DNA from: Armatimonadota bacterium
GTDB lineage: Bacteria > Armatimonadota > SYMT01
Direction: 5' to 3'
NCBI GenBank assembly: GCA_046292385.1
Contig: JBKBRF010000012.1
Coordinates: 1 to 64,000, forward strand
Length of the DNA stretch: 64,000 nt
Each line of letters starts with the position of its first letter. Positions within the stretch are counted from its first letter, which is position 1. Under the pieces are notes generated by a model. The model was not told the DNA's origin. It ran no database searches and worked only from the letters and a program-made list of their open reading frames with translations. Of the stretch, positions 8,728-29,743 are shown in pieces. A program made the position numbers and the translations under genes.

Positions 8728-10389
8728 CTACCTGGGCTTTCTCGGCAGCAGCCCCTCCCGCATCGCCGTCTGGTAGACGAAGGCGGCCATGATCACGGAG
8801 GCCTGCTTCAGGTCGTCCGCCTGGATCCGCTCGAGCACGTCCATGTTCGAATGGTGCGTCCGGCTGCGGTACTCCAGCGGGTCTTGGATGAACTGGAACC
8901 CCGGTAGTCCGACCGAGTCGAACGGGATGTGGTCGGTCGAGCCGGTGTTGGCGGCGCTGAGGGTGCTGGCGCCCAGGTCCCGGAACGGGGCGAGCCACTC
9001 GCGGAAGATCGGGCGCAGCGCCTCGTTCCCCTGCAGGTAGATGCCCCGGATGCGGCCGGTGCCGTTGTCCAGGTTGTAGTAGGCGGAGAGGCGGTCGTGC
9101 TCCGGCTTGCGCGGCAGCTCCGGCGCGGCGCCTCCCGGGCCGGCGGGTCCGCGGCCGCCGCCGAAGTGCTCCGCCACGTAGGCGCGGGAGCCGTGCAGTC
9201 CCTGCTCCTCTCCGCTCCAGAGCGCGACGCGGATCGTGCGGCGGGGGCGGAGGCCGAGCGACTGCAGGATGCGCACCGCCTCCATGCAGACCGCCACCCC
9301 GGCGCCGTTATCGGTGGCGCCGGTGCCGCCGTGCCACGAGTCGAGGTGCGCGCCGAGCATCACCACCTCGCCGGCGAGGTCGCTGCCGGGGATCTCCCCG
9401 ACGGTGTTGTACTGCATCGGGTCGTCGTCGTGGAAGCGGACCTTGAGCTCCACCTGCAGCCGCGGCGTCTGCCCGTGCTTCAGCATGCGCAGCAGGCGGT
9501 GGTAGTGCTCCACGGCGACCGTCACCTGCGGCGCGGTCTTCGCTTCTTTGCTCCAGGCGGAGATCCGGGTCCCCTCCGGCGCGTCCGCCGGCACCGGCAC
9601 CGACGCCCCCTGCACGAAAAGCGTCCCGCCGTCTCCGCGGCTGCCGGCGTCGACGATCAGCCCTACCCCTTCCTGCACCAGGAAGCGCAGCCGCGCCGCG
9701 GTGAAGCGCGGATTGGGACGCTCCTGGCGCTCCGCCGGACGGGGCACCGGCGGCGGGGCGCTGGTCGGGTTCTCGGCGGGCGGGGTCGCGGGCGGGAGAA
9801 GCCGGCTCTGGCCGACCGCAGCGTTCGCGAGGTCGAGCAGCGCGCTGTCGGAGTACCGCGCCGCCTCCGGCTCGAAGTGGGCAGCTACCTCGCGCGGCGG
9901 CGTTACCAGGACGATCTTGCCCTTCAGCTTGCCGCGGTACTGCTCCAGGTCGGCCTCCGTCTTCGCCTCGAGGTAGACGACGTCGGCCTTCAGCGTGCCG
10001 TTGGTGCCGGGCGACCACGCCTTCGGGTAGGCAATCAGCGGGATCGCCTGCGGCTCCGTCACCTGCATGGAGAACCGCTCCAGCGACCAGCCGCGGCCAA
10101 ACGGCCCCCACGGCTCCAGCTTCGCGTTCTGGAGCCCCCAGCTCGACAGCCGGTCTCGCGTCCACTCATTCGCGCGCTTCATCCCCGGCGAGCCGGTAAG
10201 GCGCGGCCCGATCGCGTCGGTCAGGTATTCCAGCGTCTCCATCACCTGGGAGCGCTGCAGTCCCTCTGCCCGGATCAGGGCGACGGGGTCCGGACCCGGC
10301 CGCTCCGCCGGCCGCTGCGCCTGTGACGGGAGCGCCACGACCCCGGCGGCGAGGAGTGAGAGTGCGGAGAGGAAGGTGCGTCGGTGCAT
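8728..10389 (-). CDS. Secreted M28-family metallopeptidase with PA domain
   Basis: GPRLTGS, GAHLDSW, GATDNG, WSGEEQGL, NLDNG, STDH, THHS; Tat-like HRRTFL signal. Confidence 0.9.
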   Translation of the reverse strand: MHRRTFLSALSLLAAGVVALPSQAQRPAERPGPDPVALIRAEGLQRSQVMETLEYLTDAIGPRLTGSPGMKRANEWTRDRLSSWGLQNAKLEPWGPFGRGWSLERFSMQVTEPQAIPLIAYPKAWSPGTNGTLKADVVYLEAKTEADLEQYRGKLKGKIVLVTPPREVAAHFEPEAARYSDSALLDLANAAVGQSRLLPPATPPAENPTSAPPPVPRPAERQERPNPRFTAARLRFLVQEGVGLIVDAGSRGDGGTLFVQGASVPVPADAPEGTRISAWSKEAKTAPQVTVAVEHYHRLLRMLKHGQTPRLQVELKVRFHDDDPMQYNTVGEIPGSDLAGEVVMLGAHLDSWHGGTGATDNGAGVAVCMEAVRILQSLGLRPRRTIRVALWSGEEQGLHGSRAYVAEHFGGGRGPAGPGGAAPELPRKPEHDRLSAYYNLDNGTGRIRGIYLQGNEALRPIFREWLAPFRDLGASTLSAANTGSTDHIPFDSVGLPGFQFIQDPLEYRSRTHHSNMDVLERIQADDLKQASVIMAAFVYQTAMREGLLPRKPR

Positions 10390-10429
10390 GCGCGGGCCTC
10401 GAAGAGGTGGCTCCAGGCGGAGGGGGACC

Positions 10430-10527
10430 GTTGCAGGTTAGCAAGTTGCAGGTTCCGAACCCCGCTTCCCCGGGGCGCCGACCTGAAACCTGAAACCTGA
10501 AACCTGAAACCTGTCAACCTGCTAACA
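10430..10527. repeat. Inverted arrays, CAGGTT-type left arm and (ACCTGAA)4 right arm
   Basis: GCAGGTTAGCAAGTTGCAGGTT ... ACCTGAAACCTGAAACCTGAAACCTGAAACCTGTCAACCTGCTAAC. Confidence 0.75.
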
Positions 10528-10528
10528 C

Positions 10529-10579
10529 GAAGGGAAGGGCTCCGGCAAACGGTTGCCCGCCGCCGGAGCCCTTCCCTTC
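10529..10579. terminator. 18-bp perfect inverted repeat downstream of rtcB
   Basis: GAAGGGAAGGGCTCCGGC ... GCCGGAGCCCTTCCCTTC; no strong U-tract. Confidence 0.5.
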
Positions 10580-10606
10580 CACCCGAAGGAGCGAGCGATC
10601 CGGAGA

Positions 10607-11977
10607 TCAGTCGCTGCCCTTCAAGCTGGCGATCGGCGTCAGCTCGTACGCCACCCGCGCGAGGCCGGCGGAGACGACGGCGTCGATCACCAGCGCCGAG
10701 TCCTTGTAGCACCCGGGCGATTCGTCGATCGGCACGTCGCCGCCGGCGTTCACCATCACGCCGAGCTCCTGCATCTGCCGGTTCACCCCGCTCTGCGTGA
10801 AGTTGTTCTTCGCCGCGCGGCGGGAGAGCCGGCGCCCGCAGCCGTGGTTCACGCTGAAGAGCGCCTTCTCCGCCCCCGGGAGGGCATAGAGGATGTAGGA
10901 GGTGTCTCCCATGCTGCCCGGGATCAGGATCGGGTGGCCCGTCTCCTCCCACCGGGTCCCCTGCAGCAGCTCGTGCCCCGGCGGCAGCGCGCGGGTGGCC
11001 CCCTTCCGGTGGACCCACCGCTGCTCCCCGTCGGTCTGCGGCTCGAGCTGCGCCAGGTTGTGGCTGATCTCGTACAGCAGCTCCGGCTCCTGCCCGAAGA
11101 CCCGCCGGAACGCCCGCGACACCTCTTCCATGATGATGAGCCGGTTGGCGATCGCGAAGTTCGCCCCGGCCGCCACCGCGTTCCGGTAGCCCTTCCAGTG
11201 CGGGTCGTCCGGCTCGAAGTAGACCGCCTCCGCGCTCACCTTCGGGCCGTCGACCTTCCCGCCGGCGCGCTTTTTCTCCCCCATCAGCCGGCGCCGGCCG
11301 ATCTCGATGAAGTGGCTCGCCAGCCCGTGGCCGAAGCCGCGGCTGCCGGTGTGGATCATCACCACCAGCTTGCCGTTCTGGTCATGCTGCAGCTCGATGA
11401 AGTGGTTCCCGCCGCCCAGGCTGCCGAGCTGGCCGAGGCCACGCCGCAGCGGGTTCTGGGGGATGTCCCAGTCGTCGTCGACCGGGATGTAGTCGCGCTC
11501 GCTGTTGTTCCGGCTGTAGCCCATCGCCTGGGCGCCGCCGCGGACGATCTCCTGGAACCGCTTCTCGTCGACGCTGTAGCCGCTCCCCTTCCCGGTGCCC
11601 ATGCCGACTCGCGACATCACCTCTTCGGAGAACTTGCGGCGCAGGCGGTCGTCCTTGCCCTTTTCCACCGGCACGTCGGAGAGGAGCGCCGCCATGCCGC
11701 AGCCGATGTCGTAGCCGACCGGCGCCTGGCAGAGCGTGCCGTTGGTCGCCATCACGCAGCCGACCGGTACCACGTAGCCGGTGTGCGCGTCCGGAGTCAG
11801 CACCACGTCGATCACGCCCGGGAACTGCGTCGCCGCGCGCGCCTGCTGGAGCACCTCTTCCTCGCACTCCTCGAAGAGCTGCGGGTTCATGAAGATCTTC
11901 ACCGGGACCTTCACGCCCTGCTGGAGGAGGTAATACCCCTCGCCCTTCACTCGCTTGCATTCCTTCTTCAGGCTCAT
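10607..11977 (-). CDS. rtcB: RNA-splicing/repair ligase RtcB
   Basis: PDAHTGY, VGYDIGCG, GSLGGGNHFIE, HTGSRG, HN, HRKGAT, PGSMG, SVNHGCGR, DESPGCYKD. Confidence 0.95.
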   Translation of the reverse strand: MSLKKECKRVKGEGYYLLQQGVKVPVKIFMNPQLFEECEEEVLQQARAATQFPGVIDVVLTPDAHTGYVVPVGCVMATNGTLCQAPVGYDIGCGMAALLSDVPVEKGKDDRLRRKFSEEVMSRVGMGTGKGSGYSVDEKRFQEIVRGGAQAMGYSRNNSERDYIPVDDDWDIPQNPLRRGLGQLGSLGGGNHFIELQHDQNGKLVVMIHTGSRGFGHGLASHFIEIGRRRLMGEKKRAGGKVDGPKVSAEAVYFEPDDPHWKGYRNAVAAGANFAIANRLIIMEEVSRAFRRVFGQEPELLYEISHNLAQLEPQTDGEQRWVHRKGATRALPPGHELLQGTRWEETGHPILIPGSMGDTSYILYALPGAEKALFSVNHGCGRRLSRRAAKNNFTQSGVNRQMQELGVMVNAGGDVPIDESPGCYKDSALVIDAVVSAGLARVAYELTPIASLKGSD

Positions 11978-12732
11978 ACTCCCACTCGCTCTCCTTTGAA
12001 CGACTCCACCTTCTCATAGACCGACACGTGCATCGTGCTCTGGGCGGTAAACGGCTCCCGCCGCCAGCCGCCCCACCGCTCCCGTCTCCGCAGCCCCGCG
12101 AGCCGTGCCATCAGGTCCAGCTCCGACGGCCAGGCATACCGGACCGAAACCGGATAGAGCCGGATCCCCGCCTCCGAGAGCACCACGTGCTGGCTCTCCG
12201 TCCGCTGCTCCACCGGATCGTGGCGCGAGTAATCGAGCATCACCCGGTCCGGCTCCACGCGCCGCGTGTCGGTTAACTGCCCCCGCGTGAACCGCGTCAG
12301 ATCCGGCACGAACACCTCCAGCGCGAAGCACCCGCCCGGCCGCAGGTGGCGCGTCACCGTCTGGAAGCACCGCACCTGCGCCTCCTGCGAGAGCAGCCCG
12401 AAGAAGGTGTTGAACACCACGTAGACCAGCGCGAACGGACCGCCCGCTTCGAACTCGGCGAAGTCCGCAAGCGTCACCGGGATCTCCGTCCCGCCGGGCT
12501 TCTCCCGCAGCCGCTCCACCATCGCCGGAGAGGCATCGACTCCATGCACCTCCATCCCGCGCGCGGCGAGCGGCAGCGCCACCCGGCCGGTGCCGATCCC
12601 CAGCTCCAGCGCCGGGCCCTCGCCGGCCAGCTCCGCCAGCCGCTCCACCATGGCCGGGTCGTGCTCCGTATACCAGTCGTCGTACACCCCCGCGATCCGC
12701 TCGCCGTACGTCGCCGAGTCATACCCATTCAT
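11974..12732 (-). CDS. Class I SAM-dependent methyltransferase
   Basis: ALELGIGTGR motif I, GVDASPAM, HLRPGG; GAGGAGG RBS; stop overlaps rtcB start (ATGA). Confidence 0.92.
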   Translation of the reverse strand: MNGYDSATYGERIAGVYDDWYTEHDPAMVERLAELAGEGPALELGIGTGRVALPLAARGMEVHGVDASPAMVERLREKPGGTEIPVTLADFAEFEAGGPFALVYVVFNTFFGLLSQEAQVRCFQTVTRHLRPGGCFALEVFVPDLTRFTRGQLTDTRRVEPDRVMLDYSRHDPVEQRTESQHVVLSEAGIRLYPVSVRYAWPSELDLMARLAGLRRRERWGGWRREPFTAQSTMHVSVYEKVESFKGERVGV

Positions 12733-12782
12733 CGCGCGTCCTCCTCGTCACGCGGTCTCCGCCGCACTTCGTCGTGCGGTCA

Positions 12783-12820
12783 GAAAACGAAAAGGCCCCG
12801 ACCGCTTCCGGTCGGGGCGC
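12783..12820 (-). terminator. Intrinsic terminator in the leader of methyltransferase-rtcB
   Basis: Minus strand GCCCCGACCG-GAAG-CGGTCGGGGC followed by CTTTTCGTTTT, about 50 nt before the start codon. Confidence 0.85.
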
Positions 12821-12849
12821 CTCCAAAGCTGCAGTGGTGCTCGCTCGAG

Positions 12850-12984
12850 CTACTCTCTGCTGTGGACGCGTCCCCTCCCGGCATCGCCGTTCCCCCGCAC
12901 GGACGCGGAGGCGCTGCCCTGCGGATAACCCGCGAGGCCAGGCGTGGCGGCCGTGATGAGGTTGTGCAGGGCTATGGTCCGCAT
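12850..12984 (-). CDS. Putative leader peptide, 44 aa (MRTIALHNLITAATPGLAGYPQGSASASVRGNGDAGRGRVHSRE)
   Basis: GGGAGA RBS, ATG at 12984, TAG at 12852-12850; lies between a promoter and a terminator. Confidence 0.55.
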   Translation of the reverse strand: MRTIALHNLITAATPGLAGYPQGSASASVRGNGDAGRGRVHSRE

Positions 12985-13031
12985 GGCGGTTCTCCCGACA
13001 CGTCAACAGTCCGAACAGAGCAAGTGGACCC

Positions 13032-13061
13032 AGCATAGAGCGTTGGCCGCCCGGCAGTCAA
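13032..13061 (-). promoter_or_regulatory. Sigma70-type promoter for the leader
   Basis: TTGACT-18 nt-TATGCT on the minus strand. Confidence 0.6.
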
Positions 13062-13156
13062 GCCCCGCCTGCGGGGCTGACGAAATGCGAGTCCGAACGA
13101 ACGCGAAGGCGCGAATCCAGCCGAAGGACGCGATGGGAGCCTGTAGCGGGCCGCCA

Positions 13157-13300
13157 GGCGGTTGAAACCACGGCAACCACGGCACGAAGTCCCCCTTCGG
13201 GGACTAACAAGGCCCAGTTCGGGCGTCCGGAGGACGCTTGGCCGAAGGCCGACCAGCGAGGTACTTCCAGTGCCTCGCGGCTCCGCGGGTATCAACCACC
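13157..13300. repeat. REP/MITE-like palindromic element
   Basis: Imperfect terminal inverted repeats GGCGGTTGAAACCACGG / CCGCGGGTATCAACCACC; internal hairpins AGTCCCC-CTTC-GGGGACT and GGCC-GAA-GGCC. Confidence 0.55.
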
Positions 13301-13604
13301 ACCGCGCTGTTGAGCGAGCCTTCATCGTACGCACGTGGAAGTACAAAGAAACAGGCCGGGCGCGGGTCCCGGCCTGCAGCGATCCCTGCGTACTCACGGT
13401 CGGCAGGCGCCTGCGCGTCTTGACGCGCGCCTCGTTGCCGTACCGCTCGTTCACCACCATTCTCGGCAGCAGGCGCGTCTCTGCCGGAATCCATTTCAAG
13501 CTCGCGTTCGCCTGCCTGCCGTGCGTGGACAGCCGCGAGAGTTCACCGGTAGACTTACGACGCACGGGGACGCTGTCGCATCGCCCCGCCGGAGGAAGGC
13601 CAGG

Positions 13605-14207
13605 ATGACGTTCCAGGAAGCGATCGACCGCCTGCGAGAGCGCACTCACGTCCCGATGTTCGCCGCCGCCACCTGGGACGCGGAGCTGGACCGGGCGCTC
13701 CACGACACGCCGCTGGACCAGCTTTTCGCCGGACAGGAGCTGCGGGACCCGCAGATGGCCGCGGCGGCGGTGGCGGGCATGCATCTCTGGAACGACAACT
13801 TCGGGGCGAGCCACTCGATCTGCCAGGGGATTCCCACCCCCACCGGCAGCTACTGGCACGGGCTGTGCCACCGCCGGGAAGGACACGCCGGCGAGGGGCT
13901 GGACGCGAACCTGAGCAACGCGAAGTACTGGTTCCGCCGTTCGGCCGGGCACCCGGCGTACGAGCCGGTCTACCGCGCCGCCCTGAACGCCCTGGATACC
14001 GGCGGCTCCGGCTTCCGCTGGATCACCGAAACCGCGGACCAGCTCCGCGCCGCCCGCGGCTGGGACCCCGCCGCCATGGCAGACTGGTTCGGCCAGGTAG
14101 AGGCCGGCACCCTCTCCCCGCAAAGCCAGGCGATCCTGGAGGAGATCCAGTGGCGGGAGATCGACGTCCTCGTCGACTGGTGCGTCGAGCGGGCGCTTCG
14201 CGGGTAG
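13605..14207 (+). CDS. Hypothetical protein, conserved-looking
   Basis: GGAGGAAGG upstream of ATG 13605; motif-like SHSICQ...SYWHGLCHRREG...NAKYWFRR. Confidence 0.8.
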   Translation: MTFQEAIDRLRERTHVPMFAAATWDAELDRALHDTPLDQLFAGQELRDPQMAAAAVAGMHLWNDNFGASHSICQGIPTPTGSYWHGLCHRREGHAGEGLDANLSNAKYWFRRSAGHPAYEPVYRAALNALDTGGSGFRWITETADQLRAARGWDPAAMADWFGQVEAGTLSPQSQAILEEIQWREIDVLVDWCVERALRG

Positions 14208-14350
14208 GGGCTCGGGGTCGGGGTATCGGACCGGCCGGGGCCTGCAAGGGTCGCGGCGACCACTGACTGGATCTCCCTGACCGGATCCGGGTGGGTGGGA
14301 CGGACGCGCGCTTTTCGTCAGCCTCTGCCGGGCGGAGTACCGGAGCCGCG

Positions 14351-14379
14351 TTGACACTGCATGGCCTTCCGGTTACGCT
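14351..14379 (+). promoter_or_regulatory. Sigma70-type promoter of the ppa operon
   Basis: TTGACA-17 nt-TACGCT. Confidence 0.65.
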
Positions 14380-14415
14380 ACACGCGTCGGTTCCGCCCCG
14401 GAGAATCCCCGCGTC

Positions 14416-14979
14416 ATGTCCCTGCTCTCGTACCCGATCGGACGCAACGCCCCGGTTGAAGTGCACGCGATTGTCGAGATCCCGAAGGGGAGCTCCAACA
14501 AATATGAGTTCGACCTCCACCACGAGGTGTTCTTCCTCGACCGGGTGCTCTATTCTCCGCTTTACTATCCGTGCGATTACGGCTGGGTCGCCGGCACGCT
14601 CTCGGAAGACGGCGACCCGCTCGATATCCTGGTGCTCGGGAGCCATCCCACCTTTCCCGGCTGCGTGGTGAGCGCGCGGCCGGTGGGCGGCCTGGCGATG
14701 GCCGACGAGCACGGGACCGACTTCAAGGTGCTGGCGGTCTCCTCGCGCGACCCTCGCTTCACCGACGTGCTCGACCTGCAGAGCCTGAATCCGCACCTGC
14801 TGCGGGAGATCGAGCATTTCTTCCGCGTCTATAAGGACCTGGAGCAGAAGGAGACCGACGTTCTCGGCTGGGTCGACCTGTCCGAGACCTACCGGGTAAT
14901 CATCGAATGTCACCAGCGACTCACCGGCCAGACCGTAGAGATGCCGCCGTTCCCGGGCCGCGCGGGGGGCGGTGCGTGA
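14416..14979 (+). CDS. ppa: Soluble inorganic pyrophosphatase, family I
   Basis: EIPKGSSNKYE, DRVL, YPCDYG, DGDPLD, D.K, HFFRVYKDLE. Confidence 0.95.
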   Translation: MSLLSYPIGRNAPVEVHAIVEIPKGSSNKYEFDLHHEVFFLDRVLYSPLYYPCDYGWVAGTLSEDGDPLDILVLGSHPTFPGCVVSARPVGGLAMADEHGTDFKVLAVSSRDPRFTDVLDLQSLNPHLLREIEHFFRVYKDLEQKETDVLGWVDLSETYRVIIECHQRLTGQTVEMPPFPGRAGGGA

Positions 14980-29513: not shown

Positions 29514-29518
29514 AGAGA

Positions 29519-29608
29519 ACTGCTGGGGGAGCTACGGCTGAGAGTCCCGAAAGGCTTCGGGACGACCCCTTGAACCTGATCCGGGTAATGCCGGCGCAGG
29601 GAAGCATG
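29519..29608 (+). ncRNA. TPP riboswitch
   Basis: GGGG...GCTGAGA...ACCC.TTGAACCTGATCCGGGTAATGCCGGCG.AGGGA consensus, upstream of thiC. Confidence 0.95.
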
Positions 29609-29743
29609 TCGACCTCCGCCATTCTGTCGGAACGCCGCTTGCCTCCTCGCAGGCGGCGTTGATTGCTTTCTGGGCGGCGGTCTCGCCGCGGCACGCTATT
29701 ACCAGCCGGGCAGCCCATGCGGTCCGCCTGGCGCAGTGAGTAA

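Follow-up and report, generated by a model that had tools for sequence, protein, structure and literature searches.

A candidate leader-peptide attenuator in front of a methyltransferase-RtcB operon of an Armatimonadota bacterium

A 64,000-nucleotide (nt) stretch of DNA from an Armatimonadota bacterium (assembly GCA_046292385.1, contig JBKBRF010000012.1, positions 1 to 64,000; hereafter the window) carries on its minus strand a two-gene operon encoding a class I S-adenosylmethionine (SAM)-dependent methyltransferase and the RNA ligase RtcB. We propose, with a probability of roughly 0.55, that the 330 bases before this operon are a ribosome-mediated (leader-peptide) transcription attenuator, which would turn RtcB on when translation fails. 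The proposal is drawn from sequence: a promoter, a short upstream open reading frame (uORF) and an intrinsic terminator precede the genes, the end of the uORF can pair with an arm of the terminator, and the same set of parts recurs before RtcB at other loci. An original prediction, made from the window alone, had placed a promoter, a ribosome-binding site, a 44-codon open reading frame (ORF), a terminator, the methyltransferase and rtcB in this order on the minus strand. All of them are found at the sites it named, the terminator here as 12818-12783 (Table 1).

Parts of the leader and their recurrence before RtcB

The promoter is sigma-70-like, and a scan of 4.2 kb around it (10300-14500) gave 2 promoter-like sites, itself included, compared with 0.3 +/- 0.6 in shuffled sequences. 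The terminator has a stem (12818-12795) of 10 bp, 9 of them G-C, followed by the tail CTTTTCGTTTTC that reaches 12783, with an energy of -22.6 kcal/mol. The uORF ends 31 nt ahead of this stem. The operon could also be driven by a promoter downstream of the terminator, a case that the original prediction had raised. A consensus scan, with non-sigma-70 promoters beyond its reach, gave no promoter-like site for the interval from the terminator to the operon start in the window or in three of the related leaders described below (L052, G001 and L127, the scan of the last extending 60 nt past the RtcB start). The gap from the end of the terminator stem to the start codon is 34-62 nt.

We compared six leaders: those of the window, G001 and L052, which belong to one family (f1), that of L127 (family f11), and those of L137 and L142, which come from one genus (family f27). 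At the DNA level the leader is hardly traceable; blastn against 60 relatives gave only one 29-nt match in the leader part (E 9.4e-4), and the many other matches belong to a repeat upstream of it. Relatives were therefore reached through the proteins. At a cut-off of E <= 1e-20, a methyltransferase ortholog is carried by 6 of 61 genomes, the window's own included, and among the fetched methyltransferase loci of those genomes RtcB lies downstream in G001 only. There RtcB is 81% and the methyltransferase 66% identical to the proteins of the window, and the methyltransferase is preceded by TTGACG-18-TATCCT, a 31-codon ORF and a 13-bp terminator with the tail TTGCGTTTTG. A metagenome scan with the methyltransferase yielded 80 loci at 57-67% identity. 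RtcB follows in one of the 70 loci with at least 300 nt downstream, L052 alone, where it is 85% identical. The leader of L052 has TTGACA-18-TATCGT, GGAGA 8 nt before an ATG, a 40-codon ORF and a terminator. Thus the layout of promoter, uORF and terminator is present in all three reachable methyltransferase-RtcB operons (window, G001 and L052). Upstream sequence of at least 150 nt was available for 77 loci; L052 alone among them has a strong terminator near the methyltransferase start, and L044, L105 and L113 have weak ones. At the closest methyltransferase loci that are not linked to RtcB, other coding sequence runs up to the gene.

The leader also occurs without the methyltransferase. Of 401 genomes sampled from the phylum, 49 carry an RtcB ortholog, and we surveyed 40 RtcB upstream regions (29 + 11), leaving out L149 with its 35 nt only. 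Besides G001, three of these regions have a promoter, an ORF and a terminator directly before RtcB: L127, L137 and L142. In L127 the terminator/promoter tool found both TTGACA-18-TAACAT and a 12-pair terminator, and a TTG-initiated ORF of 46 codons has AGGAG 9 nt before its start. L137 and L142 have GTG-initiated ORFs of 48 codons and terminators. Over the whole set, the tool scan found the terminators of the window, G001 and L127, and our own looser scan found those of L052, L137 and L142, which the tool scan had missed. A wider search in families f11 and f27 gave no further RtcB loci. Since the leader is present before RtcB without the methyltransferase, and absent at the 79 methyltransferase loci without RtcB, it is, on these sequences, RtcB rather than the methyltransferase that the leader travels with, and patchily so.

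Table 1. Features of the leader and the operon in the window
Feature	Position	Strand	Remarks
Sigma-70-like promoter, TTGACT (13061-13056), 18-nt spacer, TATGCT (13037-13032)	13032..13061	-	9/12 consensus matches
Shine-Dalgarno-like GGGAGA	12991..12996	-	6 nt ahead of the uORF ATG
uORF, candidate leader peptide	12850..12984	-	44 codons, ATG start; peptide begins MRTIALHNLITAATPG; from the ORF list
Shared block of the uORF, codons 5-12, ALHNLITA	12949..12972	-	only block common to other uORFs; His7-Asn8 at 12966-12961
Pairing segment of the original prediction, GCGCCUCC (also GCGCCTCC)	12907..12914	-	possible extra pairing partner
Candidate antiterminator 5' strand, CCGGGAGGGGACGCGUCCA	12863..12881	-	11-29 nt ahead of the uORF stop; pairs with 12825-12808
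Shared strand, UGGAGGCGCCCCGACCGG	12808..12825	-	candidate antiterminator 3' strand including the terminator 5' arm; from folding
Intrinsic terminator, GCCCCGACCG-gaag-CGGUCGGGGC, then CUUUUCGUUUUC	12783..12818	-	from the terminator scan
Methyltransferase Shine-Dalgarno, GAGGAGG	12740..12746	-	from the sequence
Methyltransferase gene	11974..12732	-	class I SAM-dependent, 252 amino acids, CcbJ-like
rtcB	10607..11977	-	RtcB RNA ligase, 456 amino acids
G+C-rich long hairpin 3' of rtcB	10529..10585	-	seen as a hairpin beneath chance Rfam matches

Competing folds, coding signals and the proposed switch

Over the six leaders, the uORF stop precedes the terminator stem by 31, 32, 26, 26, 26 and 39 nt. 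When folded up to the terminator loop, five of the six pair the terminator 5' arm with a strand whose end lies 7-13 nt ahead of the stop. In all six leaders the uORF stop codon is enclosed by the competing stem-loop, in L052 by segment fold and duplex search only; in the truncated fold of the whole L052 leader, the terminator arm pairs with the leader 5' end instead. For the window the paired strands are those of Table 1, with the stop codon in the loop, and the two states are nearly isoenergetic (Table 2). In all three f1 leaders, the best duplex between the terminator arm and the uORF lies within the last 43 nt of the uORF. RNAalifold on three leaders recovered the terminator alone, from a poor alignment, and a four-segment scheme with an anti-antiterminator was not clearly seen in the folds.

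The original prediction had built its antiterminator from a different segment. As it said, 12914-12907 (GCGCCTCC) is the exact reverse complement of 12824-12817 (GGAGGCGC). The GCGCCUCC/GGAGGCGC pairing did not hold up as the antiterminator: it is chosen in no minimum free energy (MFE) fold and does not recur, the arm pairing with 12881-12863 instead. The segment at 12914-12907 may be a further alternative partner.

Table 2. Folding energies of the two states in the six leaders (kcal/mol)
Leader	Antiterminator	Terminator
Window	-42.8	-45.0
G001	-31.8	-49.0
L052	-21.6	-35.5
L137	-27.8	-36.7
L142	-25.1	-30.6
L127	-34.2	-42.4

The f1 uORFs have a gene-like composition. Their G+C contents at the three codon positions (GC1/2/3) are 0.66/0.64/0.82 in the window and 0.68/0.45/0.87 and 0.53/0.57/0.78 in the other two, so that GC3 exceeds GC1 and GC2 and comes near the GC3 of 0.78-0.96 in the adjacent genes. 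They also share a block near the start (ALHNLITAATP, ALYNPMPKAMP and PRHNSITALYT). Within it, the differences fall on codon positions 1/2/3 as 3/3/8 between the window and G001 and as 5/4/9 between the window and L052. Five of the 11 residues are identical to G001, 4 of them encoded by different codons, and 5 of 11 to L052, 3 by different codons. What the three closest uORFs have in common is the motif [His/Tyr]-Asn-x-[Ile/Met]. When the pattern [HY].?N.[IM], which was set after the data had been seen, was sought within 12 codons of the start in the 40 RtcB upstream regions, there were two real cases, L127 (AHLNRI) and L142 (YNRII), both with terminators; a match in L131 was discarded as an artefact that spans a stop codon. 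The ORF itself is present in all six leaders, and a Shine-Dalgarno sequence stands before it in those of the window, L052 and L127. The original prediction had looked to uORF conservation and covariation among aligned leaders. This was borne out in part: f1 has the short coding-like block and the layout recurs, and beyond these the peptides diverge and RNAalifold returned no structure other than the terminator.

A second ATG frame in the window (12780-12884, minus strand, 34 codons) starts in the antiterminator strand, crosses the terminator and stops just past the T tract. G001 shows nothing comparable by eye, and the frame was dropped.

We propose that the leader would work as follows. A constitutive sigma-70-type promoter would give a leader transcript with a short translated ORF. 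The last 7-29 nt of the uORF would pair with the 5' arm of the terminator, 26-39 nt further on, to form an antiterminator stem-loop with the stop codon in its loop. During healthy translation, a ribosome would trail the polymerase until the uORF ends, covering the 5' strand of the antiterminator, the terminator would form, and the operon would be off. When ribosomes are slow, stalled or missing, whether from broken tRNA or rRNA, ribosome-targeting antibiotics or starvation, the antiterminator would stay in place, the polymerase would read through, and the methyltransferase and RtcB would be made. The likeliest site of stalling or sensing would be the [His/Tyr]-Asn-x-[Ile/Met] block at codons 6-11. 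That RNA repair is induced by stalled translation, the core of the original prediction, is thus what we also infer.

A more specific version of this idea can be formulated. Cuts of the colicin E5 type reportedly leave 2',3'-cyclic phosphate and 5'-OH ends, which are sealed by RtcB. The His/Tyr-Asn pair at codons 6-9 is encoded as CAC-AAC, UAC-AAC and CAU-x-AAU. The tRNAs with QUN anticodons are the targets cut by colicin E5-type ribotoxins, and His, Tyr and Asn are 3 of the 4 amino acids that have such tRNAs (PMC1635277, PMC1669751). The leader peptide might be a direct sensor of anticodon-nuclease damage through this codon pair: loss of QUN tRNAs would stall the ribosome at His/Tyr-Asn, the antiterminator would stay, and the ligase that repairs the same tRNAs would be produced. 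We regard this as a long shot, since His-to-Tyr is a one-base change and there are six leaders only. If true, it would be a loop in the style of the trp operon in which the signal is broken tRNA and the output is RNA repair.

A number of results weigh against a ribosome-mediated attenuator, and we gather them here. Some concern the open frame. In this DNA of about 70% G+C, dozens of overlapping ORFs are listed and frames of the length of the uORF are common by chance, so a 44-codon open frame is unremarkable alone. The uORF peptide belongs to no Pfam or NCBIfam family, and a search of 5.8 billion proteins returned itself as the only match. The peptides are poorly conserved among the leaders, with lengths of 31-48 codons and the short N-terminal block alone in common; the frames of f27 and f11 lack a GC3 signal as well as an ATG start (theirs is GTG or TTG), and the leader of G001 has no good Shine-Dalgarno match. 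Others concern distribution. The leader is found in just 4 of the 40 RtcB upstream regions of the phylum sample, and 5 of 6 other genomes of the window's family have RtcB at 79-88% identity without it. It has few instances, some of them related to each other (two come from a single genus), and the promoter and terminators of f27 were found by eye and by the looser scan only and missed by the tool scan. The folds add further points. The terminator state is 5.5-17 kcal/mol stabler in five of the six leaders. For the duplex between the terminator arm and the whole uORF, the shuffle fractions of the f1 leaders are weak (0.36, 0.12 and 0.08); within the last 43 nt alone the values become 0.087, 0.03 and 0.02, for a span picked after seeing the folds, and those of L137 and L142 are 0.062 and 0.476. 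Equilibrium folding with a ribosome-sized mask (none, or at the start, codon 7, the middle or the stop) left the pairing of the 5' arm unchanged; the switch, if real, would be kinetic. Contigs from four soil or root DNA runs over 11900-13200 have no listed difference in 12692-13200, and this lack of variation is therefore uninformative on constraint. Among RNA runs, none is listed as containing 10607-13100.

The operon genes and their surroundings

The stop codon of the methyltransferase gene and the start codon of rtcB overlap by 4 nt (ATGA). RtcB matches the Pfam family RtcB (PF01139) with E 6.6e-99 over profile positions 1-426 of 426, a full-length domain, and aligns over its full length with RtcB of Pyrococcus horikoshii (E 4.4e-62). 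In that alignment the motifs PDxHxGY, GYDIxCG, GNHF, HTGSRG, HRKGATRA and HGxGR are kept, and His378 is aligned with His404 of P. horikoshii; we take these conserved residues to be the metal-binding and nucleophile motifs. The gene is single-copy, with one match in the whole genome. Against TIGR03073, a model of PrfH-coupled RtcB, the protein scores 118.6 bits, below the cut-off of 271.8. There is no adjacent prfH; the next gene downstream, past the long hairpin, encodes an M28 peptidase. This hairpin is probably the operon end, and it is absent from the terminator-scan list because its T tract is poor. Just past it, at 10481-10513, the heptamer ACCTGAA (TTCAGGT on the gene strand) is repeated 4.7 times in perfect tandem. 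Regarding other RNA-repair genes, archease was not found in the genome, and rtcA is on a different contig (C19), unlinked to rtcB and without a comparable leader.

Two further features were seen in RtcB upstream regions of the phylum. In L151-L157, which are mostly from family f13, a conserved GCGATAC[AT]GT-like box lies 5-10 nt before the RtcB start, usually with TTTACC ahead of it. Its sequence suggests a promoter that abuts the RtcB start codon and would give a leaderless or near-leaderless mRNA, possibly another way of driving RtcB in the phylum. In L133, a 15-nt unit, TTTGATTCTATCAGG, occurs four times in tandem within the last 70 nt before the RtcB start, after a terminator-like hairpin.

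The methyltransferase matches Pfam Methyltransf_25 (E 6.8e-16). Its nearest solved relative is CcbJ (PDB 4hgy, E 4.6e-57, residues 1-242), followed by YunM and then by CypM, the cypemycin N-terminal methyltransferase (E 5.1e-17); all NCBIfam matches, including one to a daptide methyltransferase, are under their cut-offs. CcbJ is an N-methyltransferase in the biosynthesis of celesticetin, a lincosamide antibiotic. By sequence, the protein of the window would be a CcbJ-like class I SAM N-methyltransferase, closest to enzymes that act on small molecules or peptides and itself no evident RNA enzyme. The original prediction had placed it in an RNA-repair operon. Given its kinship with CcbJ, YunM and CypM, and the absence of RtcB from 69 of 70 related loci long enough to show it, a part in RNA repair is unsupported. 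A quick tree of 84 methyltransferase sequences left unresolved whether the three linked to RtcB form a clade.

Upstream of the leader, 90 nt from the promoter, a sequence of about 140 nt (13150-13289, as read on the minus strand) belongs to an interspersed repeat. It has 39 further matches in its own genome at 76-91% identity, shorter pieces of it occur in other genomes of the phylum, and several hairpins form in its fold (MFE -74.4 kcal/mol, z -2.4). It resembles an element of the repetitive extragenic palindromic (REP) or miniature inverted-repeat transposable element (MITE) type. The divergent intergenic region also contains a terminator-like hairpin with a T-rich tail (13351-13377, minus strand), with no minus-strand gene upstream of it. 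The divergent frame itself (13335-14207, plus strand, 290 codons) matches no family in Pfam or NCBIfam, and a tblastn search of six methyltransferase loci of relatives gave no counterpart of it. Elsewhere in the window, at 29515-29619 on the plus strand, a thiamine pyrophosphate (TPP) riboswitch scores 71.1 bits, above the gathering score of 54.3.

Alternatives, precedents and significance

Among other explanations of the leader, the one that survives best is a real terminator/antiterminator switch that would be set by an RNA-binding protein, a small ligand (an undescribed riboswitch) or a tRNA, with the open frame incidental. The terminator and the competing stem-loop recur while the peptide sequence is hardly conserved, which favours such a switch, as do the f27 and f11 frames, with their non-ATG starts and missing GC3 signal, the lack of a Shine-Dalgarno sequence in G001, and the frequency of open frames at this G+C. 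Against it, Rfam 15 run on 12733-13061 gave no riboswitch, T-box or leader match at the gathering threshold or even at E <= 10, only chance miRNA and atpB rows, and there is no conserved aptamer-like structure, the terminator being all that RNAalifold returned. The original prediction saw no regulator gene in view, and this stands: none is present among the 7 neighbouring ORFs scanned, and RtcR (PF06956) has 0 matches across the genome, which is 98.45% complete, with a positive E. coli control. The gene-like GC3 of the f1 uORFs and the bias of their differences to the third position speak for translation. So does the stop codon, which in six leaders lies at a set distance from the terminator and in the competing loop; both would be needless for an untranslated frame. 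We consider a switch that ignores the ribosome unlikely.

Somewhat less likely again is that the uORF is an independent small gene, coding for a small protein, an sRNA (small RNA) or a peptide precursor for the CcbJ/CypM-like N-methyltransferase, and that constant leaky readthrough of the terminator sets a product ratio without any sensing. The idea draws on the solved relatives of the methyltransferase, which include peptide N-terminal methyltransferases such as CypM, and on the daptide methyltransferase match, below cut-off as it is. A conserved N-terminus with a variable C-terminus resembles the leader and core of precursors, and a terminator after the precursor gene is common in such clusters. 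It fits poorly with L127, L137 and L142, where the same layout stands directly before RtcB without a methyltransferase, and with the 69 of 70 sufficiently long methyltransferase loci that have neither RtcB nor a small ORF with a terminator. Moreover, no other maturation or export genes are nearby, and the peptide has no relatives among the 5.8 billion proteins.

Finally, a chance assembly, in which a promoter-like site and a frame happen to stand before a terminator left by an earlier rearrangement, could appeal to the lineage-specific methyltransferase-RtcB junction, to the mobile-looking repeat 90 nt upstream and to the unremarkable nature of every single element, yet we consider it very improbable, given that the parts recur in the same order at six loci from three families whose sequences have diverged, and that a strong terminator placed between the sole promoter-like site and the genes would, if not regulated, keep them silent.

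A ribosome-mediated attenuator before RtcB would have a precedent. The original prediction knew of no description of such an arrangement, and in kind this was wrong, because the idea of leader-peptide control is already in print for one RtcB paralog. For armZ (PA5471) of Pseudomonas aeruginosa, the proposal is that a 13-residue leader peptide, PA5471.1, exerts control through transcription attenuation under ribosome-targeting antibiotics, and armZ expression rises on ribosome stalling (PMC12057347, PMC3516279). ArmZ is termed there an RtcB-like RNA ligase, and the prfH homolog PA5470 is adjacent to it in the armZ unit (PMC12057347). Both systems have a short leader peptide, a candidate one in the window, and one or more downstream terminators before a gene of the RtcB family (PMC12057347, PMC3516279). 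The Pseudomonas peptide, with its 13 residues and a position about 250 bp upstream, compares with leader ORFs of 31-48 codons in the six leaders, and the cargo of the armZ system is ArmZ with the release-factor homolog PrfH, with de-repression of the MexXY pump as the known output. The window's RtcB is archaeal/eukaryal-like and has no prfH; its kind is partnered by a CcbJ-like methyltransferase or by nothing, in the phylum Armatimonadota. A literature search on RtcB regulation found the MexXY/armZ work as the only relevant one, and nothing on attenuation by a leader ahead of a canonical RtcB. The leader described here differs from that of armZ in RtcB subfamily, in the lack of prfH, in its longer and unrelated-looking ORF, in the methyltransferase partner found in one lineage, and in phylum.

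In classical attenuators, the position of the ribosome decides readthrough. The leaders of trp, his, thr and pheA likewise consist of a promoter, a leader ORF, alternative hairpins and a terminator (PMC1183508, PMC3082878). Unlike these, the leader of the window lacks a string of one regulatory codon, and its cargo is an RNA ligase instead of biosynthetic genes. Closer in the proposed signal are the antibiotic-sensing uORF attenuators, such as the BmrB leader of bmrCD in Bacillus subtilis, mef/mel and yxjB, where stalling on the leader ORF relieves a terminator before a stress or resistance gene (PMC4191407, PMC4335068, PMC6851288). Their cargo is efflux pumps or rRNA methyltransferases, whereas that of the window is RtcB and a methyltransferase nearest to lincosamide and peptide N-methyltransferases. 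The output family RtcB is shared with the RtcR/sigma-54 rtcBA system of E. coli and Salmonella, which is induced on damage to the translation apparatus (PMC9650030). Unlike that system, the genome studied here has no RtcR and its rtcA is unlinked, and the control that we propose would be a cis one, exerted by RNA and the ribosome rather than by a CARF-domain activator.

To our knowledge, how the timing of RtcB is controlled in bacteria without RtcR is largely unknown. If our reading is true, RNA repair would be coupled directly to the failure of translation by a cis-acting leader, with no protein regulator, and the armZ precedent would extend to the canonical RtcB ligases of a distant and mostly uncultured phylum. 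The His/Tyr-Asn block offers a concrete and mutable candidate for the sensing site. The CcbJ-like methyltransferase, which would be co-regulated with RtcB, hints by its sequence kinship at a tie between this response and ribosome-targeting natural products.

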